From an uncultured Gammaproteobacteria bacterium (GTDB taxonomy: Bacteria > Patescibacteriota > Patescibacteriia > UBA9934 > GWF2-40-263): a stretch of 56,417 bases of DNA. Shown one piece after another: positions 1 through 48,170 of the stretch. Numbering within the stretch: the first letter of the stretch is position 1; the number at the start of each line of letters is the position of its first letter. A program made the translations under genes and the position numbers. Below the pieces are notes generated by a model. The model had not been told where the DNA came from and searched no databases. It saw nothing but the letters and a program-made list of their open reading frames with translations. The stretch lies in contig CAYOCD010000006.1 of assembly GCA_964402425.1 (NCBI GenBank), forward strand, positions 1 through 56,417, given 5' to 3'.

Positions 1-3000
1 TTTGGACGTTTTTCTGCACAGGATGAGCCGATGCAGTTGCCGAGCGAGGTGATGATTGGAGGATTTGGCGTAGAATTTAAAGATCCTGCTTTAATAGACC
101 AGTTCGCTGTTGAACGATCATCCCAAAACCACAAATCACCTTGTTTAACACCTGATCCTGTATATTTTTTATTCTCATCTTTGTAATCAAGCAATTCGTA
201 TACCTGAGCAAAGATCAAACTCAAACGCTTTTTTGCATCTGATTGATTAAAATCGCTTGAAATCGATAATGCTCCAAAGTTCTGGTTTTTATCGATACAG
301 ACAAAGCCATCATCAAGACTGATTTTATTCTTGCTTGCCTCTGGATTTTTGACACACTTTTTTGTTAAACAATCTTCATCATTTGTACAGTCTTTATTCG
401 GACCAGCTGTACAAGAACCGGTTCCTTTACACTCACCGCCAGTCTTTATACAAAGTTTAGTTTTTGCATCATCTCCACAAGTTGCATTGCAATCAATATC
501 ACTTGCACAAGTACCCCCTGCTCTTGGTCCTGTGTTACATTTTCCAGATGTTTTTCCAGATTCAACGACACACTTCCATTTTCCAACACACTGTGTGCTC
601 TGAAAACTACAAATTCCTTTTTTATAAAAAGGGTTACAGTCTTGCGCCGCAGTATTTGGATCACAATAACTACCTATTCCATCTGCTTTTTGAACGACAA
701 GAGACACCTTAGAAAACGCACGTGCTTCCGTTGGGCTACTCAAGACATCAGGCTCAGCACAAACACCATCCGTCTTTGCCATAACATTGCCGCACATCAA
801 AATACTTTTTGGTACGCCAATCTGATCTATTTCATCTTTGACTTGACCGAAAATCTTTGGTTCGGCAACCACGCTATAGCCAGCAAAATCATCGTGGAAG
901 CCTGTTGTTGTTTTGAATTTGGATGCTTGCCAAACACGATCTGTCCAAGCGGCATTCAAATTTCCCTCCACTCCACCTTGAGCAACCTGTACAACATTTT
1001 TACACGCAGCGAACTCATTGAAACTAAACTTTAAATAACGATATCCGCTCGAATCAGACCCACCAACATCACCACTACTTGAGATTTGATTCGGTTCTTT
1101 TCCAAGATGTGTAGACACATCAAAGACACCTTTTACCGAACAGTCCTGGTAATATTTTCTGGCCGTGTCCCAATCACCACTCTTTGTGAAGTAATAAATA
1201 TCCACTGAATTCTGATTGGTAAACATTGAAGTCAGAGAATCAAATGTCTTGATTTTTTTATCCTTTACCATCTTTGGAGTCAAACATTCTTCACCGGCTT
1301 TACCATCTGTATCCGTTGTCTTCTTTGAACCTTTGGGAACACAGAAATAAGGATAATCATTATCGTAATTATCGTACGTGAAACCCTGCTCGTCATCATT
1401 TGAACAGAGAGGAACATCACTTGATCCTTTGGTTGCATTATCGCCACATGGCTCAGCAACCGCAAAATAATTTTCAGGACAATAAATGTTTGAAGCGGCT
1501 TTGTCAGTGTCTTTAAAATAAGACTGACCCGAAGCATCGCTACATCCCCCGCCTGTTTCTGCACAAGCAAAACCGGAAGAAGTCGGTAAATCCCAAGCCA
1601 CTCCAGGCTGCGCACAATAGTAGGTGTTTGATGCAATCTGATATCCAGCACTCATATCCTTCCCATACAAATCTGTTGCGCCGGATAATTGATCAACCGG
1701 AAGCCATGTGAGACACGCTTGATCTTTTGCTTCCGTACTTCCATTCAGTTGGATGGAGGTGTCCTTTTCAAGACAATACCCCTGCCAACCAAACATGGTG
1801 TTTGTGGTAGACAGCTGTTGGCATAAACCCGTAACAGCCTGTGTTGTTGGTGGTTTACTCATGTCGTCTGTTCCATCTGCTTTTTTCGCATAAATAGCTC
1901 CCACGGAACATTCTTCATCTGTATTACAGACTTTTCCTTCTTTTAGCCCACCTGTACAAATTCCTGATGGCACTTTTTGATTTTCAAGTCCCGAAAGGTT
2001 TGTTGGATAATAACGAGATTCAACTCCTTTTCCATAAACTGCTTTTGTATAACTACAGAGACATTCGTCATTTGCTACACAATTATTTCCTTCTTTATCA
2101 CAAATTGGTGTACAAACTTTTGAAGCGTCATAACCAGAAACAAACTGTGCGGGAGTAGAAATAGATGATGATAATTCAATAATTGATTTACCGTTAACTA
2201 TTTTTGACATGGACCCACTTGTTTTCATGATTCCTACAGACGAAGCGACAATCTCTTTTGGTTTTGGAAATACTTTCCACATCGCCACTACTTTTTGTGG
2301 AAACGGTGAATCGAATTCTGGGTATCCTCGGCAGGATTGAATGTTGTCTGATTTGTCTTTTTGGAGTGGTTCCGCGAATCCGTTTCCATCAATATCGCGA
2401 ATATCCGTGAGACATCGGTTTTGGTAACACGTACCCGCAGCCGTTGTTGTGGCTGTGACACATTTTTGTCCTGTAGCACAAGGGTTTTCACCATTAGCAC
2501 CACATGCCCATGCAAGATCCGGCTTATTGAGCAAGCGATCAACACAAACTCCCTGAACAGGATCGCATATTTTTGCTGCCGCTTGCGTATCACAATCATT
2601 ATCTACAAAACACTTCACATCACTCACTTGTTGACAGTATCCGAACACACAAGTGTCATCGGTTCCGCAATTTTTATTTGAGGAACAAGCCGTCTTTGTG
2701 TTTTTACAGAATCCAACTGTACAAGCTGAAGCATCCGCACCGGAACATGGACCTGCATTATTAACTAATCGATAATCTGAAGGGGCATCTACACAATCAC
2801 CCTCTGTTTGGAGACATCCCAAATTTGTTTCACAAGACTTTGCCGTGTTCTTCTCACACCATTTCTTTGGATTCAAATTGAATTGATTGAATCGTTCAAC
2901 CGGTAATTGGTGAGGAATTTGATAACCGGAATAATCTGTTCCCGCCCAGCTTACATCACGTGAAGAGTAATACTGTTCTGTCATGACAACCGGATTACGT

Positions 3001-6000
3001 TCAGACCATGATGCGCATTGTGCTTGATCTCCCTGAGAGCCGGATTGTGTGCACAAATTTACAGAATCACAAATCTGAATGTATTTGTTTGAACCCGCAT
3101 CCCATGTAGTGCGAGAACTATTACACGCAAGCCACGCCGCACACGTACGATCACGATTTACTTTCAAGACGGTGTTGGAATCGTCTTGCAAAGACAAGGA
3201 TGGATCAACTTCACGACAAGTTCCCTGAATTCCTTTTTGTAATTTTGAATCAAGAACAGGACAGTCAGAATTAAACAAGCAAGACCGTTCGTTCCAATAA
3301 ATCGAATTTGTTGGTTTCATTGCAGAAGGTGTAAGTAATACATCTCCCTTGAGTGACAATTTGTAATAACAACGACGTGCACACAAATTAACCGTCAAAT
3401 CATTTGCGGGGTGCGGCACACCCTGAATATTCTGATCTGCTTCATTCAATTTCTTTGCCGTTTCTGGCGAGATCGCAAACGATCCCCCACCCTGCGTACA
3501 GCTAATTGGATCTACCAAACTATTTTCCGGTTTGTTAAGTAACAAGTCTGCGTGCATAGAAAGCACATAGCTTGCACTTGAGTTGTACTTGCGTTGTGAA
3601 ATGGTGGTGTTGTCAAACAAGGCACACCCTGCTTTTTGTCCAACTTTTCCTTCACATTTTTGTGTAAGGGTCACGGAATTTTCAAGGAGCTTATCATTGT
3701 TGATGATGTAATAAGATTTCCCCTTTCCGTGATTCTCTGGACTTGTGTCTGTGGCATCAATGAGTTCCGTACAACGATTTGCACTTGTCTCACACGCACC
3801 AATCCAACCATCATAAGCAGCATCACCATTTTTCCAAATTTGTGATTCATCCCCCGAGATCAAGTAAGCACTATCTGTATTTGGATCAAATTTATTGTTT
3901 GCATTCTTATCCTCCCAGTAACACGGCTCAGACTTTCCAGAACGGAACCAACCATTAAACGATTTGCTTCCGATTGATACAGAGGTTTTGTATTCACACG
4001 TCTTATCAAACGGATTCTTAAAGTAGAAGTTTCCGTCTTTTGCGGAGGAGAACTCATCACAGAACAATGATTGATTCTCACACAAAATATTTTTGTAATC
4101 GTCTGGTGTATCAAGAACGTATCTTGATTCAAATTTTGTCACCGTCTTTAAATCTTGCGCAAATGTTGGAACACCAACCTCGCGGCATCCTTTAAACGCT
4201 GCGTTGCATTGTGCGCTTCCATTATCCACAAGGAATATGGATTGATCTTGTGGAGTCACAACCGTTTCTGGACCGTACACAATCGCGAATTTTGTTCCGG
4301 TGTCGTTTGGAAGAGGATCTGCGAACACTTGTTTTGCAGAGAACACACAGTAATTTTGTCCAGCGCTGATGGTGCAGTACGTCACTCCATTTACAACACA
4401 TGGCTTATTTGTTGTTGATGGCACGCCTTTTGGCAGTGTTCCACTACCAACGTTCACACAACGTGCATTTGCCACTTGTGCATAAGCGGATTCTGAATTG
4501 TATGTGTTGTAAAACGCAGAACAACCGATCGCTTTTTCGGAACAAACGCGTGTAAATTGATAATAACTTTCCTCTTTTCCTTTTCTATCCGTATACGCTT
4601 TACATCCCAAATAATACTGCGGAGAAACAGCTCCGTTTGGAGACTGATCACAAACAGCCGGAGTCACCCACGAATCTTTAATGCGTGTAATATTTTCCGC
4701 GGTCTGTGTAAGGGTGATGTTATCGACAAAGAATTCTTTTTTGTCTTTTGTTATAAAGAATAATTTTGCGTCTTTGTCGAACGTTGCAAAACTGTTTGTA
4801 TCCATTGGACCCACGTCATACACACTCCATGTGTTTGTGAGATCCATATTTTCCACAAAGAAATGTTTGGTTCCATTTGTATCAACGAACCCTGCAGACA
4901 ATTGTCCTGTTCCTTTTGCCCAGAATTGCATGGTGTAGATCTTTCCTTTTACCAAATTTGTTGACAATGCCGCAGGAATAGTTTGAATTCCAGCATTATC
5001 ACTCGATGCAATTACACGCAAAGAATGTCCACCTGAAGAAACAGACTCGTTACTTGGTTGTGCGATTGCAGAAGCGGTTGTCCCAAATGAACCGATAGTT
5101 CCGCCTTCAAAGACTTCATTCAAAATCGTGGTTGCGTTGCGTCCTGCTCCACCTGTATATTCACGACATCCGTTTTCTGCCGCAGAACAAACTTTTGATT
5201 CTTTTTGCAATCCAAAGTATCGGCAGAATCCTTGTGTTGTCCAGAATCCACCAGACGCAGAACAATCAGCCAATGTAGATGTATTTTTTCTGTACGCAAC
5301 ACAGGCAGAATCAACCGTCACAGTTTTGGAGAAGAGACGATAGTGAATATCTCCCGCGTTATCAAAGAATTCGCGACAATCTGGATTTGTAAAAATGTCT
5401 GTGTGTGCATCACAAGATGCGTCGACCGCAGGAGGGTTGATTTCTACACACTTTACAGAACTCTCACTTTCAAGACTTGGTTTGGTACATGGTGCTGCAT
5501 TGACATCCGATTGCAACAATTGCCAGGTTTTCAATTGAAAACCTGAATTATCAGATCCTTCCCATGTGAAATACGTTGCAGATATTTTGTTTGGAGAACC
5601 ATCCGCCATTTGAGGTGTCAAACAAGCGCGCAAGTTCGTGTAATACTCTTGCGATTCCCCGCCGCTTGTTCCGAGTTTTGTGAATCCATCACATCCAATC
5701 GCTTTTGCAGAACAAACCCCCGCTTTATCTGCAATAAAGTGTACAGGGAATTTTGCAGATTCGTATTTGGTTCCTTCTTGTCTGTACGAATCATAACCTA
5801 CACAGGTATTCGGACAGGCATCGAGCGCGGAAGCAATTGCAGAAACGGAAGGGCCGGATTCTTTTGGTGCGTATAAATTACATCCAATATCAAGCGCGGA
5901 ACAAACCGGCGCATAATTAGCACATTCTGCCGGATCCGATTCAAGCCCCTTACAACCAAGATAGCTAGGCGCAACTTTTATGAAAGATTTTGTAGGTGAT

Positions 6001-8648
6001 GCTGTGTTGTAGCCATCCTGAAAGGAAGATGCAGCTTCACCCGTTTCTAATTGAATACCGTCGTACTGTACTTTTGGTGCACTTGAATTCAAATCATATA
6101 AACCAACCTCCACTTGCGCAGCTGTTGCCGGCAATGTGAACGTACAAGTGAATCGCTTCCATTCATTTGCTGTTGAAAGTGTTTTTTCGATCTTGTAATG
6201 ATTGCCTCCGACAGGAAGACAATCTCCCCCAAATGAAAGCCCACTAAACGAGATATTTACTCCGGTTACTGTTTCTGGGTACAGAGCTACATCAATCTTT
6301 TGATTTGCATCCGTTGCTTTTGCGTAAAGACTAAACGTATAAAAACTTCCGGAACTTGCTTGAACCGTTTGATAATAATACCCATTATTTGTTTTTGCAC
6401 TCTTAGCGCCATCAACCGTATCGCCATCAACTGTAAATGATGTTGCGTTTACGTTTGTATTACGCCATCCGTCTGGAGTGCCATTTTTATCTTCATCCTT
6501 TTCAAAACTTCCATTTTGAACAAGGTTAAGTGTGAGTCCGCTATTTTTTACGTTCAACTCCGTACATCCAGATTGAGCAGCGTCACATTGTTTTACGCTA
6601 TGTGTTGTATATAAACGATCTTGATAAGAATAGCTCGGAGCATTCGATCCGTTGTAACGGAGCGTATCTGATGTTGCAACCACGTCATACGTCGGTGCGC
6701 CTGTAAACCACTGAAATACTCCTGCGGAGTCTGCCACTTTTTGTGTTTTATTCCAAAGACAACCCGCATTTTGCTTTGTACAATTTGCGTTGTCCACCGT
6801 GTTCAACAAATAGGATGCCGTTTTTCCGCTTTTTGTGTTTGAGAATGTTAAACAGGTCGCATACTGTGCAGGGCATTCATCGCCTTTTACGCGCCAAATA
6901 TTTTTTTCTTGAACACAATACCCAAATCCTTCGACACACTTTCCAGAGCTATCTTCCCCAATACATGTTGGGGCGTCTGCACAAACACTCTGACGTCCAG
7001 TCGCCTGTGCACTCACACGAATTTCTCCGTTTACAGATGCTCTACATTGCGATTCCGGAGCTTTCAACACCCAGTTTGGGTCAATAAGGTGACACCACGG
7101 ATGACTCGCATCAAGTTGTCCTTGTGCATTACAGTCATTAAATCCAGCAACAATCTCTTTGAGAGATTTAGGGTTGTTCAATGAGTTTTTCTCTGCAGCT
7201 AATTCCCAACCGATAGAGATAATGCGAGCTTTGCGCAACTTCACCAAGTTTCCATAACAAAAACCATAGGTATAACAAAGACGATCTTGGTTTGCAGATT
7301 GATCTTTTGGAGAAATAAGTGGCCAATCTCCGTTTAAGACTTTTTGATCAATCGCCTCTTGCACGGTAAGAGCCCCAGTACTTCCTCCACGACTAATTGC
7401 TGACACAACACTCACGTCAATAACACAAGAATTGAGTCCGCGATTCCCCGTTCCGTCTGGTGGACACTGAGCAAATTCTCCCAAAAGATCAAATTGAGGA
7501 TTTGCAACCGGTGTTGCGGTAAAAATTCCTCCAAGATCTGCTTTGGTTGCGTCTTTATTATTTCCACCCACCAATTCTGTATTAAATGGATCTGCATTCT
7601 CTGGCTGCGGAGAAAACAATCCCTTATAAACACGATTAAACAACTGTGATGTAAGGGTATTTGTAAATGTTGAAACAGACATGTTCAAAAGTCCGTACCA
7701 AACATCTGGGTTTGCAAGGATATCCCCCGGTTTAATTTTATTTTCATCTCCTTTTGCGGCTTTCAATTGATCATCAAACTGCTTTGCCACAATAGCAGCA
7801 GGTGTTTTTGTTTGCCCTGTAATTAAATCTTTTACGTTTGTAAATCCCCCAATTGAAATAGATCCGATTTGCTCTGCAACCCCCAACTCTGCTTTCTTTT
7901 GTGCCGCCTCATTTGTGAGTTGCAAAAACCCAATGGAAGCACCCAATTCATTATTTCCAGGCTTTAACCCTTCCGCAAGTTTATTAAATAAAAATGTATC
8001 ACGCGCATCTTTATCATTACTGAGCAGGGCGGATGCATCTGAAACAACCTGACCCCACTGAGTACTGATAGAATTGAAATCACACTTTGGTTGTTGAATC
8101 GTATAATTTTGTTTAATACTCAACTGAAGATTCAAACGAATCACTGGATTTGGAGGAACACACAAATCCAAACCAAAGGACTCTTTAGTAATATCACTCA
8201 AATTTCCGAATGCTTCTCCCGCAATATCAACAAGAATTCCCTGTCTGGTTCCGTCTGGGTTCTTTTGATAAAACATGGAACTCTCCCCCGGACCTCCGTT
8301 TGCAATGTATACTGCCGCTTCATAGGCAATACGATTACTAGCGAAAGAAACAAAATCAATGAGCGCTTTCACGGCGACCATTTTAAGAGATGGTGTAATG
8401 ATTTTGTCCCAAAGCGTTTTATTTGCTTCCGCTACAGCTTCTGGTGGACAGGTACTTGGAACTGCACCACTTTTTAAACAAGCTGCTCTTGCTAAATTTG
8501 CCGCAAGTTCTGTCCCGGCACTTGGATCCGCAGCCAAAACAGGTGTTGGTGCTGACAACATGAGTCCACTTGAAATGACTCCGATCAAAAAAACAAAAAC
8601 GAGCCCCCTACTAATCCATTGTCTTTTTTTCTTGAAAGAATTCATCAT
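1..8648 (-). CDS. Giant Cys-rich secreted/surface protein (>2,882 aa; 3' end cut by the window edge)
   Basis: I read the reverse complement by hand. ATG-ATG lies at 8648/8645, and the N-terminus MMNSFKKKRQWISRGLVFVFLIGVISSGLMLSAPTPVLA/ADPS is a signal peptide or anchor. The frame (codon first bases at coordinates = 2 mod 3) shows no stop down to base 1. It is absent from the ORF track, presumably because no stop lies inside the window. All 7 minus-strand ORFs listed in 1-8650 sit in one other frame. Confidence 0.9.
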   Translation of the reverse strand, partial: MMNSFKKKRQWISRGLVFVFLIGVISSGLMLSAPTPVLAADPSAGTELAANLARAACLKSGAVPSTCPPEAVAEANKTLWDKIITPSLKMVAVKALIDFVSFASNRIAYEAAVYIANGGPGESSMFYQKNPDGTRQGILVDIAGEAFGNLSDITKESFGLDLCVPPNPVIRLNLQLSIKQNYTIQQPKCDFNSISTQWGQVVSDASALLSNDKDARDTFLFNKLAEGLKPGNNELGASIGFLQLTNEAAQKKAELGVAEQIGSISIGGFTNVKDLITGQTKTPAAIVAKQFDDQLKAAKGDENKIKPGDILANPDVWYGLLNMSVSTFTNTLTSQLFNRVYKGLFSPQPENADPFNTELVGGNNKDATKADLGGIFTATPVANPQFDLLGEFAQCPPDGTGNRGLNSCVIDVSVVSAISRGGSTGALTVQEAIDQKVLNGDWPLISPKDQSANQDRLCYTYGFCYGNLVKLRKARIISIGWELAAEKNSLNNPKSLKEIVAGFNDCNAQGQLDASHPWCHLIDPNWVLKAPESQCRASVNGEIRVSAQATGRQSVCADAPTCIGEDSSGKCVEGFGYCVQEKNIWRVKGDECPAQYATCLTFSNTKSGKTASYLLNTVDNANCTKQNAGCLWNKTQKVADSAGVFQWFTGAPTYDVVATSDTLRYNGSNAPSYSYQDRLYTTHSVKQCDAAQSGCTELNVKNSGLTLNLVQNGSFEKDEDKNGTPDGWRNTNVNATSFTVDGDTVDGAKSAKTNNGYYYQTVQASSGSFYTFSLYAKATDANQKIDVALYPETVTGVNISFSGLSFGGDCLPVGGNHYKIEKTLSTANEWKRFTCTFTLPATAAQVEVGLYDLNSSAPKVQYDGIQLETGEAASSFQDGYNTASPTKSFIKVAPSYLGCKGLESDPAECANYAPVCSALDIGCNLYAPKESGPSVSAIASALDACPNTCVGYDSYRQEGTKYESAKFPVHFIADKAGVCSAKAIGCDGFTKLGTSGGESQEYYTNLRACLTPQMADGSPNKISATYFTWEGSDNSGFQLKTWQLLQSDVNAAPCTKPSLESESSVKCVEINPPAVDASCDAHTDIFTNPDCREFFDNAGDIHYRLFSKTVTVDSACVAYRKNTSTLADCSASGGFWTTQGFCRYFGLQKESKVCSAAENGCREYTGGAGRNATTILNEVFEGGTIGSFGTTASAIAQPSNESVSSGGHSLRVIASSDNAGIQTIPAALSTNLVKGKIYTMQFWAKGTGQLSAGFVDTNGTKHFFVENMDLTNTWSVYDVGPMDTNSFATFDKDAKLFFITKDKKEFFVDNITLTQTAENITRIKDSWVTPAVCDQSPNGAVSPQYYLGCKAYTDRKGKEESYYQFTRVCSEKAIGCSAFYNTYNSESAYAQVANARCVNVGSGTLPKGVPSTTNKPCVVNGVTYCTISAGQNYCVFSAKQVFADPLPNDTGTKFAIVYGPETVVTPQDQSIFLVDNGSAQCNAAFKGCREVGVPTFAQDLKTVTKFESRYVLDTPDDYKNILCENQSLFCDEFSSAKDGNFYFKNPFDKTCEYKTSVSIGSKSFNGWFRSGKSEPCYWEDKNANNKFDPNTDSAYLISGDESQIWKNGDAAYDGWIGACETSANRCTELIDATDTSPENHGKGKSYYIINNDKLLENSVTLTQKCEGKVGQKAGCALFDNTTISQRKYNSSASYVLSMHADLLLNKPENSLVDPISCTQGGGSFAISPETAKKLNEADQNIQGVPHPANDLTVNLCARRCYYKLSLKGDVLLTPSAMKPTNSIYWNERSCLFNSDCPVLDSKLQKGIQGTCREVDPSLSLQDDSNTVLKVNRDRTCAAWLACNSSRTTWDAGSNKYIQICDSVNLCTQSGSQGDQAQCASWSERNPVVMTEQYYSSRDVSWAGTDYSGYQIPHQLPVERFNQFNLNPKKWCEKNTAKSCETNLGCLQTEGDCVDAPSDYRLVNNAGPCSGADASACTVGFCKNTKTACSSNKNCGTDDTCVFGYCQQVSDVKCFVDNDCDTQAAAKICDPVQGVCVDRLLNKPDLAWACGANGENPCATGQKCVTATTTAAGTCYQNRCLTDIRDIDGNGFAEPLQKDKSDNIQSCRGYPEFDSPFPQKVVAMWKVFPKPKEIVASSVGIMKTSGSMSKIVNGKSIIELSSSISTPAQFVSGYDASKVCTPICDKEGNNCVANDECLCSYTKAVYGKGVESRYYPTNLSGLENQKVPSGICTGGLKEGKVCNTDEECSVGAIYAKKADGTDDMSKPPTTQAVTGLCQQLSTTNTMFGWQGYCLEKDTSIQLNGSTEAKDQACLTWLPVDQLSGATDLYGKDMSAGYQIASNTYYCAQPGVAWDLPTSSGFACAETGGGCSDASGQSYFKDTDKAASNIYCPENYFAVAEPCGDNATKGSSDVPLCSNDDEQGFTYDNYDNDYPYFCVPKGSKKTTDTDGKAGEECLTPKMVKDKKIKTFDSLTSMFTNQNSVDIYYFTKSGDWDTARKYYQDCSVKGVFDVSTHLGKEPNQISSSGDVGGSDSSGYRYLKFSFNEFAACKNVVQVAQGGVEGNLNAAWTDRVWQASKFKTTTGFHDDFAGYSVVAEPKIFGQVKDEIDQIGVPKSILMCGNVMAKTDGVCAEPDVLSSPTEARAFSKVSLVVQKADGIGSYCDPNTAAQDCNPFYKKGICSFQSTQCVGKWKCVVESGKTSGKCNTGPRAGGTCASDIDCNATCGDDAKTKLCIKTGGECKGTGSCTAGPNKDCTNDEDCLTKKCVKNPEASKNKISLDDGFVCIDKNQNFGALSISSDFNQSDAKKRLSLIFAQVYELLDYKDENKKYTGSGVKQGDLWFWDDRSTANWSIKAGSLNSTPNPPIITSLGNCIGSSCAEKRP

Positions 8649-8654
8649 ACAATT

Positions 8655-9380
8655 CTATTGCTTTGGAGTTTCAACGGTTTTGGTTCCCTGAACGGCTGCG
8701 CCGCCCGTTGTAAGTGAATCAAATTGCCCTTCAGCGGACGCCTGGCTAACCGCAGCCTCAAATAATTTTTGCAAATCTTCGTCACTAATTTTATCAACCT
8801 CTTCTTTTGCCATTCCTGATTGAATCAATGCAGAACGAATTTCTTGTGCCGTTGCCGCTTTAAAAAACTTCTGGACATCTTCTGCACTTCCAAATTTAAG
8901 TTGGCCGGACTCTAAAATCCCCTCATTTCCCGGAACAGACCCGAGAATTCCTTGAGGAGTCGATTCGATTGTATTTGCAATCTCTCCAGACGCATTACAA
9001 TTTTTGCCTTGAGGACAGTTTGGATCTGTTCCTGCAAAAACTTCTGTTTTATCTTCCGTACTGTCTGAATCAGAATCTTTCAAATAAGGACTTGTCTTAT
9101 AGACATACAGCTCGTCGTAATCCGAAAGTCCATCACTGTCTGTATCTATCTTTTTTTGTTCTTCTGCTTCTTTTGAATCTTTTGCGTAAGGATTTACAAC
9201 GTCTTCGCCCGTATAATACTTGGCGAACTGTTGTTGAATTGGGCGATACAACTGAGAACCAAACGATCTAAATCCAAAAATAATTCCACCAAACCCCAAA
9301 AAAACCAAAAGAGCAAAAGCAATTTTCTGCTCCGCTTGTAAAACCGAACGGGGACGATTTTGAATTCTCCGTGTCGCCAT
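8655..9380 (-). CDS. Small membrane-anchored protein with a thrombospondin-type-3-like Ca-binding motif (DTDSDGLSDYDE...DSDSD)
   Basis: This is track ORF 8655..9452. I prefer the internal start MATRRIQNRP at 9380, which is followed by the TM segment IAFALLVFLGFGGIIFGF. Its TAG stop lies 6 nt upstream of the giant ORF ATG. Confidence 0.75.
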   Translation of the reverse strand: MATRRIQNRPRSVLQAEQKIAFALLVFLGFGGIIFGFRSFGSQLYRPIQQQFAKYYTGEDVVNPYAKDSKEAEEQKKIDTDSDGLSDYDELYVYKTSPYLKDSDSDSTEDKTEVFAGTDPNCPQGKNCNASGEIANTIESTPQGILGSVPGNEGILESGQLKFGSAEDVQKFFKAATAQEIRSALIQSGMAKEEVDKISDEDLQKLFEAAVSQASAEGQFDSLTTGGAAVQGTKTVETPKQ

Positions 9381-9449: not shown

Positions 9450-9476
9450 CAAAAAAACAGGAAGTGGACTCCTGTT
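9450..9476 (-). terminator. Rho-independent terminator after rsmA
   Basis: Stem ACAGGA/TCCTGT with a 7-nt loop, followed by a T-run on the minus strand, immediately after the rsmA stop. Confidence 0.7.
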
Positions 9477-10262
9477 TTATGTGTGAATCAGTTGGTCGAG
9501 TTTTACCCAATCTTCCAGTGTAAGGTTTTCTGCACGCACCCTCGGATCGTGTCCGATCGAAGTAAACAACGATTTTATCTCTTCTGTGGTTGTTTCAGGT
9601 TTTACATTACGAAGATACGGCAAAAGATTGTGATGCAACTGTTTACGACGTGAGATAAATCCCACTTTTGCAAGTGTAATCACACGTTCCGCAAACGGAT
9701 GCGGAGATGGTTTCAGATCAAATTGAACCACAGCCGAATCCACTTTCGGGATTGGTCTGAACGATCCAGCTTTCACATTCACCACACGCGTACAATCTGC
9801 GTAGAGCTGACACACAACAGACAACAAACTCATCTGAGGTGGTTTTGCAAGAATTCGATCCGCCACCTCCCTCTGCACCATGAGAATCATCCGAGATGGA
9901 CGAGGAGATTGCGTGAGAAATTTTTCAATGATCGGTGATGTGATGTTATACGGGATGTTTGCGATTAATTTATAATTGCGATCTTCGACCGGTAATTTCT
10001 CGATACGTAAAATATCACCCTCTATAAGCTCGATCTTGTCGCCAAAATGTTTTACGAGCGGCTCAATCAGATCATGATCAAGCTCAACTGCAATAACATG
10101 AGCTTTTGATCCAACAAGTGCTTGTGTGAGCAATCCTGTCCCAGGACCAATTTCAAGAACACGCTCCCCTTTCTTCAGATCTGCTGCAACCAAAATCTTA
10201 TCAACCACAGATTGGTCGATAAGAAAATTCTGACCGTACGATTTTTTTGCGCGAGGAAGCAT
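9477..10262 (-). CDS. rsmA: 16S rRNA (adenine1518/1519-N6)-dimethyltransferase
   Basis: The start SYGQNFLIDQSVVDKI and the SAM motif VLEIGPGTGLLT are typical of KsgA/RsmA. Confidence 0.93.
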   Translation of the reverse strand: MLPRAKKSYGQNFLIDQSVVDKILVAADLKKGERVLEIGPGTGLLTQALVGSKAHVIAVELDHDLIEPLVKHFGDKIELIEGDILRIEKLPVEDRNYKLIANIPYNITSPIIEKFLTQSPRPSRMILMVQREVADRILAKPPQMSLLSVVCQLYADCTRVVNVKAGSFRPIPKVDSAVVQFDLKPSPHPFAERVITLAKVGFISRRKQLHHNLLPYLRNVKPETTTEEIKSLFTSIGHDPRVRAENLTLEDWVKLDQLIHT

Positions 10263-10367: not shown

Positions 10368-11300
10368 TTACTTCTGTTTTTTCTTAAACCACTCAACCGT
10401 CTTTGCAAGCCCTTCCTCAAATTGAGTCTTTGGTTCCCAATCGAGCATCTTGCCCGCTTTGCGGGCATCTAGGACAGAACGCATAACTTCACCCGCAGCT
10501 GGTTTGGCATGTTGTTCTGGGAGTTTATACTCTGTTAGTTTTGCGAGTTTTTTAAAAAGCGTATTTACATCTGTTTCACGACCCGTTCCAATATTAAACT
10601 CGCCAACCACATTTTTCTGTGCCGCAAGCAGGTTTGCACGCACAATATCACCAACGTATACAAAATCGCGTGTTTGTTTTCCAGTTCCGTTAATCAAAAC
10701 AGGTTTTCCGGCAAGCATGAGAGTTGTAAAAATCGAAACAACACCCGCTTCTCCTTTTGCGTTCTGTCGCGGACCAAAAACGTTTGCGTATCGGAGTGCA
10801 ACGTAAGGCATGCCATGAAGTTTGTGTGCGAACGAAAGATACATTTCCGATGTGCGTTTTGAAATTCCGTATGGAGAAATTGGCTCTGCGGGAATTGTCT
10901 CCGCATACGGCATTTTTGCCGTGTCCGGATACATCACTCCCCCGCTCGATGAGAACACAATCTTTTTTACACCAATTTCCTTTGCAACACTCAAGATGGT
11001 GAGCAAACCCATAATGTTTGTCTTTGCATCTTCAAGAGGATTCTCAACAGACTTGCGCACATTGATCTGTGCTGCCAAGTGAAAAATCACCTCTGGTTTT
11101 ACTTTTTTAAGATAATCGATAAACGCCGGCGCATTCACGGAAAGTTTTGTGAAACTCGCATTCGGATTCACATTCGACTTTTGTCCGCTCGACAAATCAT
11201 CCACAACATAAACCTTCACACGCTTCGCAACGAGTGCGTCGACAAGATGAGAACCAATGAAACCGGCGCCGCCGGTAACAAGAGCTGTTTTGAATTTCAT
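10368..11300 (-). CDS. NAD-dependent epimerase/dehydratase (UDP-glucose 4-epimerase-like, extended SDR)
   Basis: Contains TGGAGFIGSHL, the catalytic YGISK (YxxxK) and YANVFGPRQ. The start is trimmed from the track's 11393 to MKFKTALVTGG at 11300. Confidence 0.85.
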   Translation of the reverse strand: MKFKTALVTGGAGFIGSHLVDALVAKRVKVYVVDDLSSGQKSNVNPNASFTKLSVNAPAFIDYLKKVKPEVIFHLAAQINVRKSVENPLEDAKTNIMGLLTILSVAKEIGVKKIVFSSSGGVMYPDTAKMPYAETIPAEPISPYGISKRTSEMYLSFAHKLHGMPYVALRYANVFGPRQNAKGEAGVVSIFTTLMLAGKPVLINGTGKQTRDFVYVGDIVRANLLAAQKNVVGEFNIGTGRETDVNTLFKKLAKLTEYKLPEQHAKPAAGEVMRSVLDARKAGKMLDWEPKTQFEEGLAKTVEWFKKKQK

Positions 11301-11310
11301 ATATGCATTT

Positions 11311-11353
11311 GTCATTGCGAGGAGTTCGACGACGAAGCAATCCTTGCGTTTAT
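11311..11353 (+). repeat. Left inverted repeat flanking the GIY-YIG gene
   Basis: Sequence gtcattgcgaggagttcgacgacgaagcaatccttgcgtttat. Its partner at 11633-11680 is the reverse complement with a 5-nt indel. Confidence 0.8.
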
Positions 11354-11634
11354 AGTGTATCCGATAAATCAATCCACTCTGGATTATCTGCAATAATTAA
11401 ATCAATCTTCTTTTTACGAGATCCACCCTTTAATTGTTTCTCGCGTGCGATAGCATCTCGCACATCCTCACAGGGCTCGACATATACAAGCTTGCTAATA
11501 TTATACTTTTTCGTAAATCCTTCCACTAATTTTTCTTTATGTTCAAACGCGCGTCTTGCGATGTCGTTTGTGACTCCGATATACAGAACTTCATTATTCC
11601 AATTTGTCATGATGTAAACGTAGTACATTTTCAT
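11350..11634 (-). CDS. GIY-YIG nuclease family protein (UPF0213-like)
   Basis: Contains YYVYIMTN..VLYIGVTNDIARRAFEHK...REKQLKGGSRKKK. The start is trimmed to MKMYYVY at 11634. Confidence 0.85.
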   Translation of the reverse strand: MKMYYVYIMTNWNNEVLYIGVTNDIARRAFEHKEKLVEGFTKKYNISKLVYVEPCEDVRDAIAREKQLKGGSRKKKIDLIIADNPEWIDLSDTL

Positions 11635-16315: not shown

Positions 16316-17596
16316 CTAAGACGTATTGGGCAACCGAAGGCTTATTGCTAACACAAACGTCATAAGCGCAATTCCGGGCCACATTGAAAGCGGGTAATGG
16401 TCAAACAAGGAGAGAATGAGAAGCATGAGAAGAAGGGTGCTCGCAAAAATTCCGCCTGATGTTTTTTTATGGACAAAAACCAAACGCAAAATCTCAAATA
16501 CAAAATACCCAAAAGCAAGAAAACCAATGATACCGAATTCTGCAAGCAAAAGAAGAGGGGTGTTATGGATCGGCTGATAACTCCAGACGGGTTGTCCTTT
16601 CGATAAACTCTGAAGCGCAAACACATATGCACCAGGACCAACCCCAAAAAGCGGATCGATCTTAAACACGCTTCCGAATGTTTGATATTGGCTCGCGCGT
16701 TCTTCTAATGAGATCGCCTCAACACGAAGCGCTGGGTTGAACCTTGCAAGAACATGCGAGTGCAGCATGCCAATTGAAAGCAAAATCGTAATGAGACCAA
16801 CAGACAAAAGAGGAATTGCGCGATGCGGAACAAGCTTCTTGTCGTAAAAGGCTTGACCAAGAAAAACAACGAGACCAATCGTAAGCGCGAGCCAGGCTCC
16901 ACGAGAGAACGTGAGGATTAATGTCGAAGTGAACAGGACAATCATTGTAATCTGTAACCACCCTTCCCAACTCTTCATGCTTTTCAAGCCCTTCCGACCT
17001 TTCCAACCCTTTAACACAATTCCAATGGCAAGGTAACCGCCAAAAATGTTTGGGTGTGGAAATGAACCGTAAGCGCGCAAAGAACGAAACGCATCTGTCG
17101 CAACAACAGCAACTCCGGATGTCTCGACCTGTTTTTGTGCGAGACCAAGAAGAGTAAGTGCGGGACTGAAGCCTGTGAGATATTGAATCCACCCAAGAAT
17201 ACACGGCAAAATAAGCCCAACAAGAAATGTGTTTATACTGTGAGAAATTTTTGTACGTTCATCAAGCAACAATAATAAAAACATCCCAGCCGCAACAAGA
17301 TGACTCACCCACCCCAAACTCACGGCATACAAACGAGACCACCCAAGACACACAAAACTCACAGCAAAAACCACAAAAAGAGCACGGACAATCTGTTTAA
17401 ACTCTGGACGAACGATTGGACGACCGCGCAATACAAAAGCGATCGCCATCAATATCTCTGTTGCAAACACCCCAAGATTTCCGTATACCGTTGCTCCTTC
17501 TGGAAGCGAAACCATACGATAGAAAAAAACTGTTTGCCACGGGAGCAAAAAAAGGGCGGCTGTTAAAAAAGCATCTGCTATTTTTTGTTGGTTCAT
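16316..17596 (-). CDS. O-antigen ligase/Wzy_C family polytopic membrane protein
   Basis: About 10 TM segments, with FSRGAWLAL and GVGPGAY motifs typical of Wzy_C. Confidence 0.75.
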   Translation of the reverse strand: MNQQKIADAFLTAALFLLPWQTVFFYRMVSLPEGATVYGNLGVFATEILMAIAFVLRGRPIVRPEFKQIVRALFVVFAVSFVCLGWSRLYAVSLGWVSHLVAAGMFLLLLLDERTKISHSINTFLVGLILPCILGWIQYLTGFSPALTLLGLAQKQVETSGVAVVATDAFRSLRAYGSFPHPNIFGGYLAIGIVLKGWKGRKGLKSMKSWEGWLQITMIVLFTSTLILTFSRGAWLALTIGLVVFLGQAFYDKKLVPHRAIPLLSVGLITILLSIGMLHSHVLARFNPALRVEAISLEERASQYQTFGSVFKIDPLFGVGPGAYVFALQSLSKGQPVWSYQPIHNTPLLLLAEFGIIGFLAFGYFVFEILRLVFVHKKTSGGIFASTLLLMLLILSLFDHYPLSMWPGIALMTFVLAISLRLPNTS

Positions 17597-29319: not shown

Positions 29320-32313
29320 GTGAACGCACGCCTTTTCGTTTTTATCCTGTCCCTCTTCTCAATCGGATGCGAAGAAATTTCTCCTTTCATTTCGGATATT
29401 CATTGGAGTATTCGTAAAGATGTTGATCGTGACGGTATTCCATATCCAGAAGATTGTGATGATCGCAATCCAAAAATTGGCATTCGTGTCTGGTATCAGG
29501 ATATTGATCAAGATGGATTTGGAGCGGGTGGAAAAATCATTGCCTGTTCCATGCCGACGGGTGCAACTATCACGAACACGGATTGTGATGATACAACCGC
29601 GTCCGCCTATCCAACCGCCACGGAACTTTGTGACACCATCGACAACAACTGTAATGGTAGTACCGACGAACTATTTAAAACCCTCGGCACAAGCTGTGGG
29701 ATTGGCGCCTGTTTGGGTGGTACACAAATTTGCACAGCAGATAAAACGAGCACAATCTGTTCAACACAGAACAATGTGAGTTCGGAATCCTGTGACACTA
29801 TTGATAACGACTGCGATGGTAAAACAGATGAAACATTCACAGATCTCGGTTCAGCCTGTGGTGTAGGTGCGTGTAGTGGTGGCAAAAAAATTTGCGCGAC
29901 CAATCTGTCAGGCACCATCTGTTCCACAGACAGCCAATCGAGTTTAGAAATCTGCGACACCATCGATAATGACTGTAATGGTGAAACGGACGAAAACTTG
30001 TTGAAGAAATTCTTCAAGGATCTTGATAAAGATACATATGGCAACGCAAACGCGAATCGTTTTGGTTGTGAAGCGTTACCAAATGAAGTCACTGTCTCTG
30101 GTGATTGCAACGATCAACTCGCAAACGTCTATGCAGGAGCTGTAGAATTTTGTGACACCATCGATAATGACTGCAATGGGCAAACAGATGAATCATCGGC
30201 CGTTGACGCAAAAACACTCTACGCCGATGTGGATCAAGATGGGTACGGAAATATCTTGGTCACAAAAAAATCGTGCCAAATGGAAAGCGGTTGGTCCCTC
30301 ACAAGTAACGATTGCAGCGATCTCAACAAATCCATTCACCCGAATGCGACAGAGACATGCAATACGATCGACGAAAACTGCAACGGAAAGACAGATGAAG
30401 GTGTGTGGCTTACGTTTTTTCCGGATACAGACAAAGACGGATTCGGCGCTCTTTCTGGAGACGTAACGGGATGCACCGCTTCTGCGGGATACGTTTCAAA
30501 CAACACGGACTGCAATGACACAAACAAGAACGCATATCCAAATGCGATCGAACAGTGCGATAACAAGATCGACGAAAATTGCGACGGGATCACAGACAAT
30601 GCGTCAAACGCAAGTCTCTGGTATCTCGATGCCGACAAGGATAGCTACGGCACAAGTGCTGTTTCGATCTACGCCTGCACACCCCCTGTCGATTATGTCG
30701 CAAACAAAAGTGATTGCAATGATTCAAACAATACCATTCACCCAAACGCGATCGAACTATGCAAAGACAGCATCGACAACGATTGCAACGGTATCACGGA
30801 CACAGACACGCAAGTTGTGACCTGGTACCTCGATTTCGATCAAGACGAATTCGGGGATGCTGCGCAAACGAAACTCGATTGTGCACAACCCGCGGGATAC
30901 GTTAAAAACAACAATGACTGCAATGACAAAGATCTGTTTATCCATCCAAACGCAAAAGAAATTTGCAATAACGGCGTGGATGACAATTGCGACAAAGCTG
31001 TCAACCAATGTGTTCTAACAGGAGTTATCAAAATTGCTGACGTAAACACCATTCAACTCACAGGACCGGAAAACCAAAACTTTGCTTCCGCTGTAGCAAC
31101 ATGTGATCTAAACAACGATGGATTAGACGATCTCATTGTTGGCTCACCGGCCACAAACGCAAATCAAGGAAAAATTTCCATCTACCTGTCCCCTCTCAAA
31201 AACAACATGGCTGTAAGCCATGAGATTCTCGGACTCGCAAGCGGTTTATTTGGAACAAGTCTTGCGTGCACGAAATCAAAAAATGGCCCCGTCCTCGCTG
31301 TTGGTTCCCCAGGGGACCAAACAGGTGGTAACAGTGCCGGAGCTGTCTATCTCTTTAAAACGTCTCTGTTGAACGTTGTGTCTGCAACAAAAGCTGATGC
31401 AAAATGGATAGGCACGACACAAAACATGGAAGTTGGTATTTCGTGTATAACCATCCCCGATCAAAACAACGATCAGATCGACGATTTCTTTGTCGGAGCG
31501 GATGGATACAACGGTGGAACTGGAGCATTTGCAGGAGCAGGCTTTGTCCTGAGCTCAGCGTCGCTCGGAACAGAGATGATCCAAAATGCATTTACGAGTG
31601 TCATCAACAAAACAAAAGACGAACTCGCTGGAACAGCTCTTGCCGCCGGATTTCTCAACCCTGACGGAAAACTCGATCTTATTCTCGGAGCCACTTCAAG
31701 CGATGTTGCCGCCACAGATGCGGGCATCGTCTACACTCACCTTGGACCTTTTGCAGGATCGGTTTACACAACGGACAGCAAACCCCTTTATGGGATTTCC
31801 CCATTCGATCATTTTGGACACAGTCTTTGGAGCGGCTTCGATCTGACAGGAGACACACTCGACGATCTGCTGATTGGCTCTCCAGGAAACGGCAACGCGC
31901 AAAACACAGGCTTTATCCAAGTCGCCAGATGGAATACGCAAGGAACAAATCTGCCATTTCTTGTCACGACACTTGAATCCGCCATCGGTGGAGATCGACT
32001 CGGATATTCCGTTTCAAGCGGACACGTGAACACGGATTCCACAGGTGACATTCTGGTCGGATCCCCAGGAGCGGATGACGCCGGATTCAATACAGGAAGT
32101 GTTTTCCTTCAGTACGGACCCATTCTCAAAGATGGTGATATTCGCAAGACAGCGCATCTCAGAATTGATGGAGATACAACAAGTGGACAACTAGGTTGGC
32201 TCGTAAAAATCGTCCCAGATCTAAATGGAGATGATATTCCCGACCTTATCCTGGTTGCCAAATCAACCAAACCTCTTCGAAAACTTTACGTTTTCCCTGG
32301 GGCCGGATTCTAA
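29320..32313 (+). CDS. Lipoprotein with about 8-9 MopE-type Cys-rich putative metal-binding repeats followed by an FG-GAP/integrin-alpha-like beta-propeller
   Basis: GTG start and lipobox LFSIGC. The repeat CxDxNxxIxPxAxExCDxIDNDCNGxTDE recurs from about 29440 to 31010. FG-GAP motifs (DLNNDGLDDLIVGSP, DLTGDTLDDLLIGSPG, DLNGDDIPDLILVA) follow from about 31010 to 32313. Confidence 0.85.
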   Translation: MNARLFVFILSLFSIGCEEISPFISDIHWSIRKDVDRDGIPYPEDCDDRNPKIGIRVWYQDIDQDGFGAGGKIIACSMPTGATITNTDCDDTTASAYPTATELCDTIDNNCNGSTDELFKTLGTSCGIGACLGGTQICTADKTSTICSTQNNVSSESCDTIDNDCDGKTDETFTDLGSACGVGACSGGKKICATNLSGTICSTDSQSSLEICDTIDNDCNGETDENLLKKFFKDLDKDTYGNANANRFGCEALPNEVTVSGDCNDQLANVYAGAVEFCDTIDNDCNGQTDESSAVDAKTLYADVDQDGYGNILVTKKSCQMESGWSLTSNDCSDLNKSIHPNATETCNTIDENCNGKTDEGVWLTFFPDTDKDGFGALSGDVTGCTASAGYVSNNTDCNDTNKNAYPNAIEQCDNKIDENCDGITDNASNASLWYLDADKDSYGTSAVSIYACTPPVDYVANKSDCNDSNNTIHPNAIELCKDSIDNDCNGITDTDTQVVTWYLDFDQDEFGDAAQTKLDCAQPAGYVKNNNDCNDKDLFIHPNAKEICNNGVDDNCDKAVNQCVLTGVIKIADVNTIQLTGPENQNFASAVATCDLNNDGLDDLIVGSPATNANQGKISIYLSPLKNNMAVSHEILGLASGLFGTSLACTKSKNGPVLAVGSPGDQTGGNSAGAVYLFKTSLLNVVSATKADAKWIGTTQNMEVGISCITIPDQNNDQIDDFFVGADGYNGGTGAFAGAGFVLSSASLGTEMIQNAFTSVINKTKDELAGTALAAGFLNPDGKLDLILGATSSDVAATDAGIVYTHLGPFAGSVYTTDSKPLYGISPFDHFGHSLWSGFDLTGDTLDDLLIGSPGNGNAQNTGFIQVARWNTQGTNLPFLVTTLESAIGGDRLGYSVSSGHVNTDSTGDILVGSPGADDAGFNTGSVFLQYGPILKDGDIRKTAHLRIDGDTTSGQLGWLVKIVPDLNGDDIPDLILVAKSTKPLRKLYVFPGAGF

Positions 32314-38366: not shown

Positions 38367-38443
38367 TGGTGGGCGTGCTTGGACTTGAACCAAGGACCAC
38401 AGAGGTATAAGCTCTGCGCTCTAACCAGCTGAGCTACACGCCC
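38367..38443 (-). tRNA. tRNA-Ile (anticodon UAU), CCA encoded
   Basis: The reverse complement folds as GGGCGTG-ta-GCTC..GAGC-g-CAGAG-cuUAUac-CTCTG-tggtc-CTTGG-ttcaagt-CCAAG-CACGCCC-a-cca. Confidence 0.85.
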
Positions 38444-47394: not shown

Positions 47395-48129
47395 TTATTT
47401 TTGTTGTGCACCAACAGACACAATCACGTTCTCAAGAATATTTTGCGGAATAGATCCGGGAATACGATTCCCATTAATAAAAAACGTTGGGGTTCCACGA
47501 ACTCCCGCCGCAAGACCATCTTGATAATCTTGTTGAACTTGTTTTGTGTACGTTTGTGCCGAAAAACACGCTCGAAAACGATCGACATTCAAATTCAACT
47601 GGGTGGCAAACTGCTCAAAAGAAGCCTCTTCAAGTGAATCTTGATTTTGATAGATCTTGTCATGATATTCCCAAAACCTTCCTTGTTCATGAGCGCACGC
47701 AGCTGCCTCTGACGCTGTTTGTGCAAGCGGATGTAACTCAATCAATGGAAAATCTCTATAAATATACTGAAATTGATTTGGATATTTTGTAGCAAGAGAA
47801 CGCATAACAAAACTAGATGTCCGAGAAAACGGACAACCAAAATCTGCAAACTCAACAATGGTAATAGGCGCATTCACATTTCCAAGTGTTGGTCGATTCT
47901 TTAGAGCAACATCAAATACCTGATCCTTTACCGGTTCGGATGCAAGTTTTGTTATCGTTGAAACCGTTTGCGAAAAATTCAAATCAGAAAGATTCAAACT
48001 TCCGTTTCTGATTTGATTTGTAAAAAAAACAATCCGCCAAACAAATATACCAAGCAAAAAAAGAACAACGAGGGTCACCATCGTTCCAATCCAGCCACGC
48101 TTCTTGTGAATCGAAATTTCTTCTTGCAT
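47395..48129 (-). CDS. Membrane-anchored DsbA-like thioredoxin-fold protein with a CPFS (monothiol) active site
   Basis: Contains ITIVEFADFGCPFSR ... GVRGTPTFFINGNRIPG (cis-Pro loop) and an N-terminal TM segment. The track start is 48159; the alternative MQEEISIHKK at 48129 is used here. Confidence 0.8.
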   Translation of the reverse strand: MQEEISIHKKRGWIGTMVTLVVLFLLGIFVWRIVFFTNQIRNGSLNLSDLNFSQTVSTITKLASEPVKDQVFDVALKNRPTLGNVNAPITIVEFADFGCPFSRTSSFVMRSLATKYPNQFQYIYRDFPLIELHPLAQTASEAAACAHEQGRFWEYHDKIYQNQDSLEEASFEQFATQLNLNVDRFRACFSAQTYTKQVQQDYQDGLAAGVRGTPTFFINGNRIPGSIPQNILENVIVSVGAQQK

Positions 48130-48170
48130 AAAGACACATGTATACAGAAAGTATATCATAAAATCATCCT

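Follow-up and report, generated by a model that had tools for sequence, protein, structure and literature searches.

A giant cysteine-rich protein family, predicted to be secreted, in Candidatus Uhrbacteria and related Patescibacteria

The giant gene and its locus

The first 8,648 nucleotides of contig CAYOCD010000006.1 (assembly GCA_964402425.1) are occupied by one giant gene on the minus strand. The entire stretch analysed here, 56,417 nucleotides, is called the window below. Machine translation of the reverse complement of 1..8648 yields 2,882 sense codons, read from base 8648 to base 3, and not a single in-frame TAA, TAG or TGA. The remaining five frames of the same region contain 85-236 stop codons each, and, given the base composition, a stop-free run of 2,882 codons is expected by chance with a probability of about 10^-84.5. 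The gene opens with the pair of start codons ATG-ATG at 8648/8645 (8648 mod 3 = 2), and an in-frame TAG lies just 5' of it at 8657-8655. It leaves the window at the edge, and the window holds the 5' ~92% of it. Alignment with the homologs P0001 and P0003 sets the missing C-terminal part at ~231-236 residues and the predicted full length at ~3,118 aa.

The first-pass annotation had described the same object: one open frame of more than 2,882 codons cut by the window edge, opened by the two ATG codons, with the first bases of codons at coordinates equal to 2 mod 3. It had also placed all seven complete minus-strand open reading frames (ORFs) listed within 1..8650 in one other frame, and these indeed all have end coordinates equal to 1 mod 3. 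The region seems to be empty in the ORF track because ORFs crossing the window edge go unlisted; the lister by design leaves out those running off the end of the source.

Could a frame of this length be a chance event, a pseudogene or an assembly chimera? The cut by the window edge is the sole point in favour of any of these. Apart from the odds of about 1e-84, there are colinear full-length homologs on hundreds of independent contigs, and the ratio of nonsynonymous to synonymous substitution rates (dN/dS), measured against a relative of 82% identity, is 0.14 for the whole comparison and stays at 0.06-0.20 in each block of 320 codons. The gene contains no tandem DNA repeats able to mislead an assembler (a single 29-nt match is all that was found). 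These explanations were rejected, and the probability left to them is negligible. The region 1..8648 is a real, strongly constrained gene of a bacterium of the Candidatus Uhrbacteria type (Patescibacteria, or candidate phyla radiation, CPR).

Immediately upstream on the same strand lies a small partner gene (8655..9380, 241 aa counted from the ATG), which ends with its stop codon 6 nt ahead of the giant gene. Its product has a predicted N-terminal membrane anchor with the N-terminus inside, two TSP3-like calcium-binding repeats (DTDSDGLSDYDE...DSDSD) and a DPNCP.GK.C loop. The match to TSP3_bac (E = 8e-5) is below the cut-off, and the motif is conserved across 70 aligned homologs. A homologous small ORF ends directly upstream of the giant gene in all 74 examined loci. 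The gap is mostly 1-6 nt, within a range from -47 to +193 nt, and each of the three stop codons is represented. A terminator-like hairpin (9454..9478, minus strand) found by a consensus scan, at a score not above the shuffle expectation, directly follows ksgA. Since the small ORF is always present, the gap is short and the hairpin separates the pair from ksgA, the partner and the giant gene probably form their own, translationally coupled transcription unit.

In the window, as in loci L001, L003 and L005, both genes lie in one reading frame, split by the TAG codon and one or two further codons. One possibility was that both are translated as a fusion by read-through of this TAG, as the frame is common to the window and the first four relatives inspected. 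However, the frame offsets over the 74 loci are distributed 28:23:23, that is, randomly, and a start and signal peptide of its own are conserved in the giant protein. The fusion was rejected, with hardly any probability remaining for it, and the common frame is a chance coincidence.

The window is a piece of a cellular chromosome. It encodes KsgA, a sugar epimerase, a class-I release factor, GroEL, a Wzy_C-family protein, YidC, NusA, several aminoacyl-tRNA synthetases, UvrA, RNase J and five tRNAs. Synteny in related CPR genomes, which the first-pass annotation had named as a check, is conserved: relatives with 81%, 63% and 33% identity of the giant protein share the gene order Wzy_C-like, GroES, GroEL, release factor, epimerase, Sua5, KsgA, small protein, giant protein.

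Family and distribution

A protein search identified 142 homologs, nearly all of them 2,900-3,400 aa long and colinear with the query along its entire length. The nearest ones, P0001 and P0002 (81% identity, 100% of the query covered), have all features of the family, and full-length homologs reach down to 30% identity. The named homologs are annotated as 'hypothetical protein' and come from metagenome-assembled genomes (MAGs) of Candidatus Uhrbacteria or Patescibacteria, in agreement with the earlier reading of the window as a CPR genome. A search seeded with a 33%-identical member produced further relatives labelled Falkowbacteria and Parcubacteria.

Among the GTDB species representatives scanned, 381 stretches encode a relative of the giant protein. 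The best 80 of the 381 loci all come from different assemblies, as expected if each genome has one copy, and the gene is apparently single-copy. Tandem giant paralogs had been suspected for P0002 and P0051; this was rejected, as the contig of P0002 carries one giant gene. In one relative with a chromosome of 1.0 Mb, the giant gene makes up 0.95% of the genome.

A profile of the N-terminal 660 aa compared with 1.84 billion proteins retrieved 1,347 clusters (at 50% identity), 1,115 of them at E <= 1e-30. In the best 150 matches, the similarity begins, with few exceptions, somewhere in the first ~75 residues, and the proteins are mostly 2,500-3,860 aa long; the shorter ones may be fragments. This is a large family of colinear homologs with a signal peptide, a common cysteine pattern and a TSP3-like partner, and it is already in the databases under the name 'hypothetical protein'. 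A literature search found no paper describing this giant cysteine-rich family.

Many MAG records that contain the giant gene in its syntenic context (L012, L013, L017, L021, L024 and others) carry the title 'uncultured Gammaproteobacteria bacterium'; for one, the title is 'Candidatus Kapaibacterium'. Both titles look like placeholders or errors.

Protein architecture

All coordinates in this section refer to the minus strand. The candidate signal peptide (aa 1-39, 8532..8648) consists of a basic n-region KKKRQW, a hydrophobic core and the site VLA/AD. Residues 11-39 are the sole stretch of the giant protein with Kyte-Doolittle hydropathy above 1.6, and the VLA/AD that follows is of the AxA type; the N-terminal signal proposed in the first-pass annotation is thus recovered. 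All 56 full-length relatives have an N-terminal hydrophobic stretch, and across the relatives it precedes an AxA-type site. None of the 56 has a lipobox, a membrane segment at the C-terminus or, within the final 60 residues, an LPXTG-like motif. By these features the giant protein is a predicted Sec-type substrate with no other membrane segment and no known anchor of its own. The peak hydropathy outside the signal peptide is 1.41, with no stretch resembling a membrane segment, and insertion of the helical N-terminus into the membrane is not supported by hydropathy.

The signal peptide is followed by a cysteine-poor region of ~345 residues (aa 40-384, 7497..8531) with the motifs AYEAAV.IA.GG, LGIKQ.Y, STFTNTLLS and DPFN. 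It forms long helices in both AlphaFold2 (AF2) runs, at pLDDT of only ~35-58. Next is a small alpha/beta domain (aa 385-530, 7059..7496), the most conserved part of the protein (identity to the query 0.59-0.62), with the motifs LTVQEAID..G.WPLI, CYTYG.CYGNLVKLRKARI..IGWELAA and WCHLIDPNWVLK, and with invariant polar residues. Its AF2 fold is confident (pLDDT 88-96 in the run on aa 40-560 with 44 sequences). Foldseek found no neighbour of either region in PDB or BFVD, all matches having E > 0.4, and a Pfam scan of the 44 members of the N-terminal alignment produced no match over aa 385-530.

Then cysteine modules and jelly rolls alternate. The first cysteine-module block (aa 531-704, 6537..7058) contains C-x6-C and C-x5-C loops with invariant cysteines and the motifs GYC..EKN.W, NAGC and AGCTEL. 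It is followed by jelly roll 1 (aa 705-876, 6021..6536), the second conserved cysteine-module block (aa 877-1170, 5139..6020; identity 0.47-0.58) and jelly roll 2 (aa 1171-1320, 4689..5138). Profile-profile comparison shows an ancient duplication, in which each jelly roll with the following cysteine module is a repeat (probabilities 89-93%); the units 861-926 and 960-989 recur after jelly roll 2. No other clear internal repeats were seen by the same method.

The long cysteine-rich core (aa 1321-2460, 1269..4688) contains ~70 mostly conserved cysteines, some of them invariant. It has no Pfam match above noise in 19 members and no related sequence in PDB. The remainder of the protein within the window (aa 2461-2882, 3..1268) is variable and rich in indels (identity 0.10-0.28, gap fraction 0.2-0.66). 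It has the highest dN of the gene, and dN/dS is still 0.20. The C-terminal ~250 residues, beyond the window, are conserved again in the relatives and are Ig-like (bacterial Ig domain) in one member.

The two jelly-roll modules reported in the first-pass annotation are confirmed by domain models. Both are beta-sandwiches of carbohydrate-binding module (CBM) types. CBM_4_9 (PF02018) matches two stretches of the giant protein with E = 4e-9 (37.4 bits at the gathering threshold 25.9), the best one being 1174-1275 in jelly roll 2, and is also found in P0003, P0088 and P0182. Jelly roll 2, of the CBM4/9 type, is similar to the CBM4 structure 1gui in the PDB profile search (E = 0.004) and has a weak profile match to jelly roll 1. 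The latter is of the CBM4/9/16/22 type. Its AF2 model (pLDDT 66-82) is matched by Foldseek to the CBM16 structure 2zey (E = 5e-6, TM 0.74 relative to the target) and also to CBM4 and CBM22. Moreover, residues 725-876 match positions 18-170 of the 182 in the NCBIfam spike-fibre model NF048003 (E = 2.5e-13, 50.9 bits at the cut-off 36), as do 11 of 19 family members.

The studied member of the NF048003 family binds capsular polysaccharide of recipient cells (PMC10218006). A context of phage or gene transfer agent (GTA) particles, such as capsid and spike-base genes, was looked for around the giant gene, but the neighbours are all housekeeping genes and there is no PHROG match. The giant protein shares only a domain with the spike fibre and is not a spike-fibre protein. 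The jelly rolls, ~10% of the giant protein, are predicted to bind glycans.

For most of the length of the protein the first-pass annotation had recognised no characterised family. This is still so, as ~85% of it is matched by nothing in Pfam, NCBIfam or PHROGs and by no PDB sequence. The domain scans covered the whole protein, full-length relatives and every member of the alignments of aa 40-1175 and aa 1321-2520, and only CBM_4_9 and GTA_spike_fiber were above noise. Single-member matches to DUF7107, DUF4141, DUF6536 and choice_anch_C were dismissed as noise-level. In a PDB profile search with the 44-member full-length alignment only the CBM4 and CBM16 jelly rolls are real, and matches to p300/CBP TAZ-like domains (E > 0.3) were set aside as noise caused by cysteine composition. 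No full-length homology to a characterised adhesin or toxin family was found.

The domain composition is relevant to one explanation of the giant protein, namely a secreted effector or enzyme with a catalytic domain too divergent to be recognised, targeted to its substrate by the CBMs; it might degrade or scavenge glycans, or act as a lytic factor or a toxin. Indeed, CBM4/9/16/22 modules in characterised proteins are usually attached to glycoside hydrolases, and aa 385-530 could suit such a role, being highly conserved, confidently folded and without a known relative, and having invariant polar residues. The giant proteins of the predatory Omnitrophota are linked to cell-wall degradation, at least in the title of the report (10.1101/2023.11.21.568195). 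However, none of the members scanned has a catalytic family in Pfam, NCBIfam, PHROGs or the PDB profile search. The C-terminal domain is conserved and, in one member, Ig-like, unlike a polymorphic toxin accompanied by an immunity gene, and the giant protein and the relatives scanned have no Rhs/YD or filamentous-haemagglutinin repeats. Downstream genes differ between the relatives examined, and no immunity-like pair was seen among them. More than 100 conserved structural cysteines over 2,500 residues suit a scaffold better than an enzyme. Overall, an enzymatic or toxic function seems very unlikely.

Cysteine pattern

The giant protein contains 132 cysteines (4.6% of residues), in line with the earlier impression of a cysteine-packed product. 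Family members have 120-156 cysteines; among 56 relatives, 46 have an even number. In an alignment of these 56 relatives, 102 of the 132 cysteines are conserved at >=90%, and the mean conservation of cysteines is 0.86 versus 0.34 for other residues. The spacings are dominated by C-x6-C (19 occurrences) and C-x5-C (16 occurrences). Block shuffling gives 7.4 +/- 2.5 occurrences of C-x6-C, and none of 2,000 shuffles reached 19. Such spacing points to an extracellular protein in which disulfides staple many short loops. A DsbA-like thiol-disulfide oxidoreductase is encoded in the same window (47395-48159, minus strand) and is a candidate oxidiser of these cysteines.

The first-pass annotation ended the protein, within the window, in knottin/EGF-like clusters. 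The cluster it quoted is present at ~aa 2,687-2,754, but it is not at the end, since ~130 residues follow before the window edge. Nor does its assignment hold: no EGF, knottin or other curated cysteine-repeat model of Pfam or NCBIfam matches there at E up to 1. The cluster is lineage-specific and lies within the least conserved and most indel-rich part of the protein.

Candidate function

The first-pass annotation had cautiously suggested a cell-surface or host-contact structure, which fits the features described above. In the reading that we favour, with a confidence slightly better than even, the giant protein would be a disulfide-stapled surface fibre, tethered by its small partner and binding polysaccharides of other cells. 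After Sec export and cleavage of the signal peptide, its cysteines would be oxidised to disulfides, producing a long, rigid, protease-resistant, acidic fibre or scaffold on the cell surface. The TSP3-like partner would hold the conserved N-terminal part at the membrane. The jelly rolls would bind polysaccharides on the envelope of another cell, a host or prey, or on a substrate, and thus mediate attachment. Finally, the variable region near the C-terminus might tune the length and reach of the fibre, or its specificity, between lineages. This reading is suggested because the family combines a Sec signal, conserved cysteines, a DsbA-like gene in the window and CBM-type jelly rolls, one of which is similar to a spike fibre.

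Several observations weigh against a fibre of this kind. The ~85% of the protein without recognisable domains leaves room for undetected enzymatic or other activity. The confident parts of the AF2 models are aa 385-530 and jelly roll 1, ~300 of the 2,882 residues (the model of aa 40-1175 with 19 sequences is poor, mean pLDDT 44), and neither the N-terminal helices nor aa 385-530 have a fold match in PDB or BFVD. The tethering by the partner is suggested by adjacency and predicted topology only. Host-specificity adhesins are usually variable and often multi-copy. The apparent single copy, the housekeeping synteny and the strong purifying selection fit a core envelope component at least equally well.

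Such a component, resembling an S-layer protein, is the main alternative, though an unlikely one. In this case the giant protein would form a protective or shape-giving layer or scaffold of the cell's own, and the jelly rolls would bind the cell's own wall glycopolymers. Its apparent single copy across 381 species genomes, always in the same housekeeping neighbourhood, and purifying selection along its full length are what one expects of it. The composition also agrees: the giant protein shares with many surface-layer proteins an acidic pI (5.05), much Ser, Thr, Ala and Gly and little His, Met and Arg. Nearby genes include a sugar epimerase and a member of the Wzy_C family. On the other hand, no SLH or other wall-binding domain was found in the giant protein and three diverse relatives. 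S-layer proteins usually are of 40-200 kDa and nearly cysteine-free, whereas the giant protein exceeds 300 kDa and has the cysteine content given above, and jelly roll 1 matches a receptor-binding spike fibre. The attachment fibre and the envelope layer are compatible, and both could be partly true.

A bolder extension of the attachment fibre, which we regard as quite unlikely, is that the giant protein and its partner constitute a lineage-defining host-contact organelle of almost exclusively new folds. It would serve as a bridge, and possibly as a conduit, by which Uhrbacteria and allied Patescibacteria attach to their hosts and exploit them. The parts of such an organelle would be the ~345-residue helical N-terminus, the domain at aa 385-530 and dozens of disulfide-stapled modules.

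Comparison with known systems

The long repeat adhesins of the Bap/RTX type in diderm bacteria, LapA, SiiE and MpIBP, are secreted, project ligand-binding modules, are retained at the N-terminus and are stiffened by calcium. They are exported by type I secretion via a C-terminal RTX signal, consist of dozens of near-identical Ig-like repeats in tandem and contain almost no cysteine. The giant protein is similar in being very long and predicted to be secreted; in the proposed fibre it would also be retained by its N-terminus, be cross-braced, presumably by disulfides, and project ligand-binding modules. It differs in its N-terminal Sec signal, its 4.6% of cysteine and the absence of tandem repeats and of an RTX or Ig array. 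Pfam finds no Ig or BIg domain in the giant protein that could form tandem Ig-like repeats, and no RTX motifs were found in the full-length relatives P0001 and P0003.

Closer analogues are known in the CPR. In Peribacteria, sets of large cysteine-rich proteins with signal peptides were described, for which rigidity and attachment to other cells were proposed (Anantharaman et al. 2016, PMC4736985). As in the giant family, these CPR proteins have a signal peptide, a very high cysteine content and no functional annotation, and the genome encodes one disulfide-bond protein. However, there are ~20 of them, averaging ~1,650 aa, many in a 14-gene cluster, and they vary between strains (PMC4736985). 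The giant family, compared with them by description only, consists of one protein of ~3,100 aa that is strongly conserved lineage-wide and is encoded in fixed synteny by what appears to be a single-copy gene.

In Vampirococcus lugosii, also a CPR bacterium with giant surface proteins, predictions place the ten longest proteins (1,392-4,163 aa) at the surface, and formation of the fibrous coat as well as host recognition and attachment have been attributed to them (Moreira et al. 2021, PMC8080830). They contain WD40, PKD, integrin, fibronectin or DUF11 domains, whereas the giant family has two CBM-type jelly rolls and is otherwise unassigned. The lineages are also different, Absconditabacteria and Uhrbacteria, respectively.

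The very large genes of Omnitrophota (West-Roberts et al. 2023 preprint, 10.1101/2023.11.21.568195) likewise belong to small-celled, probably predatory or symbiotic bacteria and are linked to cell interaction. This is another phylum, and, while the title of that report ties the giant genes to cell-wall degradation, the giant family has no detectable degradative domain. With CBM4/9/16/22 proteins and the RcGTA head spike fibre the giant protein has a domain in common, but here this domain is attached neither to a hydrolase nor to a phage particle. Thus large cysteine-rich surface proteins of the CPR are already known, and the giant family is a variant with fixed synteny, a partner and few known domains.

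Other genes of the window and of related loci

The Wzy_C-family gene (16316-17596, minus strand) and the sugar-nucleotide epimerase/dehydratase gene (10368-11393, minus strand) are kept near the giant gene in distant relatives; the counterparts are at 1561-2841 in L001 and at 917-2230 in L003. Among the members of the Wzy_C family are O-antigen ligases and protein O-oligosaccharyltransferases. As the family includes the latter and the gene is kept nearby, it is conceivable that the Ser/Thr-rich giant protein is glycosylated.

Downstream of the giant gene, beyond the part covered by the window, several relatives have an M23 peptidase gene at a distance of a few kb (L003 22347-29476; L004 17590-24719; L001 26807-29666; L086 23052-24320). 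After it, L003 and L004 have genes encoding proteins of ~950 aa and ~640 aa and a PrgI-family gene, and these may belong to a Patescibacteria type IV secretion-like cluster. In L005, the closest relative, a weak candidate Y1 transposase gene (10603-11154) starts 2 nt past the stop codon of the giant gene; it is absent at this place in L001 and L086.

Adjoining the DsbA-like gene of the window is a gene (45424-47382, minus strand) encoding a 652-aa protein with a T4SS_pilin domain. The window also encodes a second large cysteine-rich protein of surface type (29320-32313, plus strand; 997 aa), with eight MopE-type putative metal-binding motifs and FG-GAP repeats. An annotation of the same kind was reported for the cysteine-rich proteins of Peribacteria.

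A tRNA-Ile gene at 38367-38443 (minus strand) has the anticodon UAU. This anticodon is uncommon, as most bacteria decode AUA by a lysidine-modified CAU tRNA. The GC skew is negative in every 2-kb bin over 1-56417 regardless of gene orientation, and therefore the window probably lies inside a single replichore, with neither the origin nor the terminus within it.

Implications

To our knowledge, Uhrbacteria and their relatives are uncultured, and neither their hosts nor their mechanisms of attachment are known. Here one gene takes ~1% of a genome of ~1 Mb, is conserved across hundreds of species, and ~85% of its product matches nothing characterised. The attachment role of giant cysteine-rich surface proteins of the CPR has already been published; the advance would lie in the definition of this family and of how it works. 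The family offers several handles for experiment, namely two expressible modules of the glycan-binding type, a conserved partner protein and a conserved, confidently folded domain of unassigned function. The giant gene itself could mark the lineage, and cells in enrichments could be labelled by targeting it. Because it is apparently single-copy, has fixed synteny and is under strong purifying selection in hundreds of species, the giant protein is probably central to the lifestyle of this lineage.

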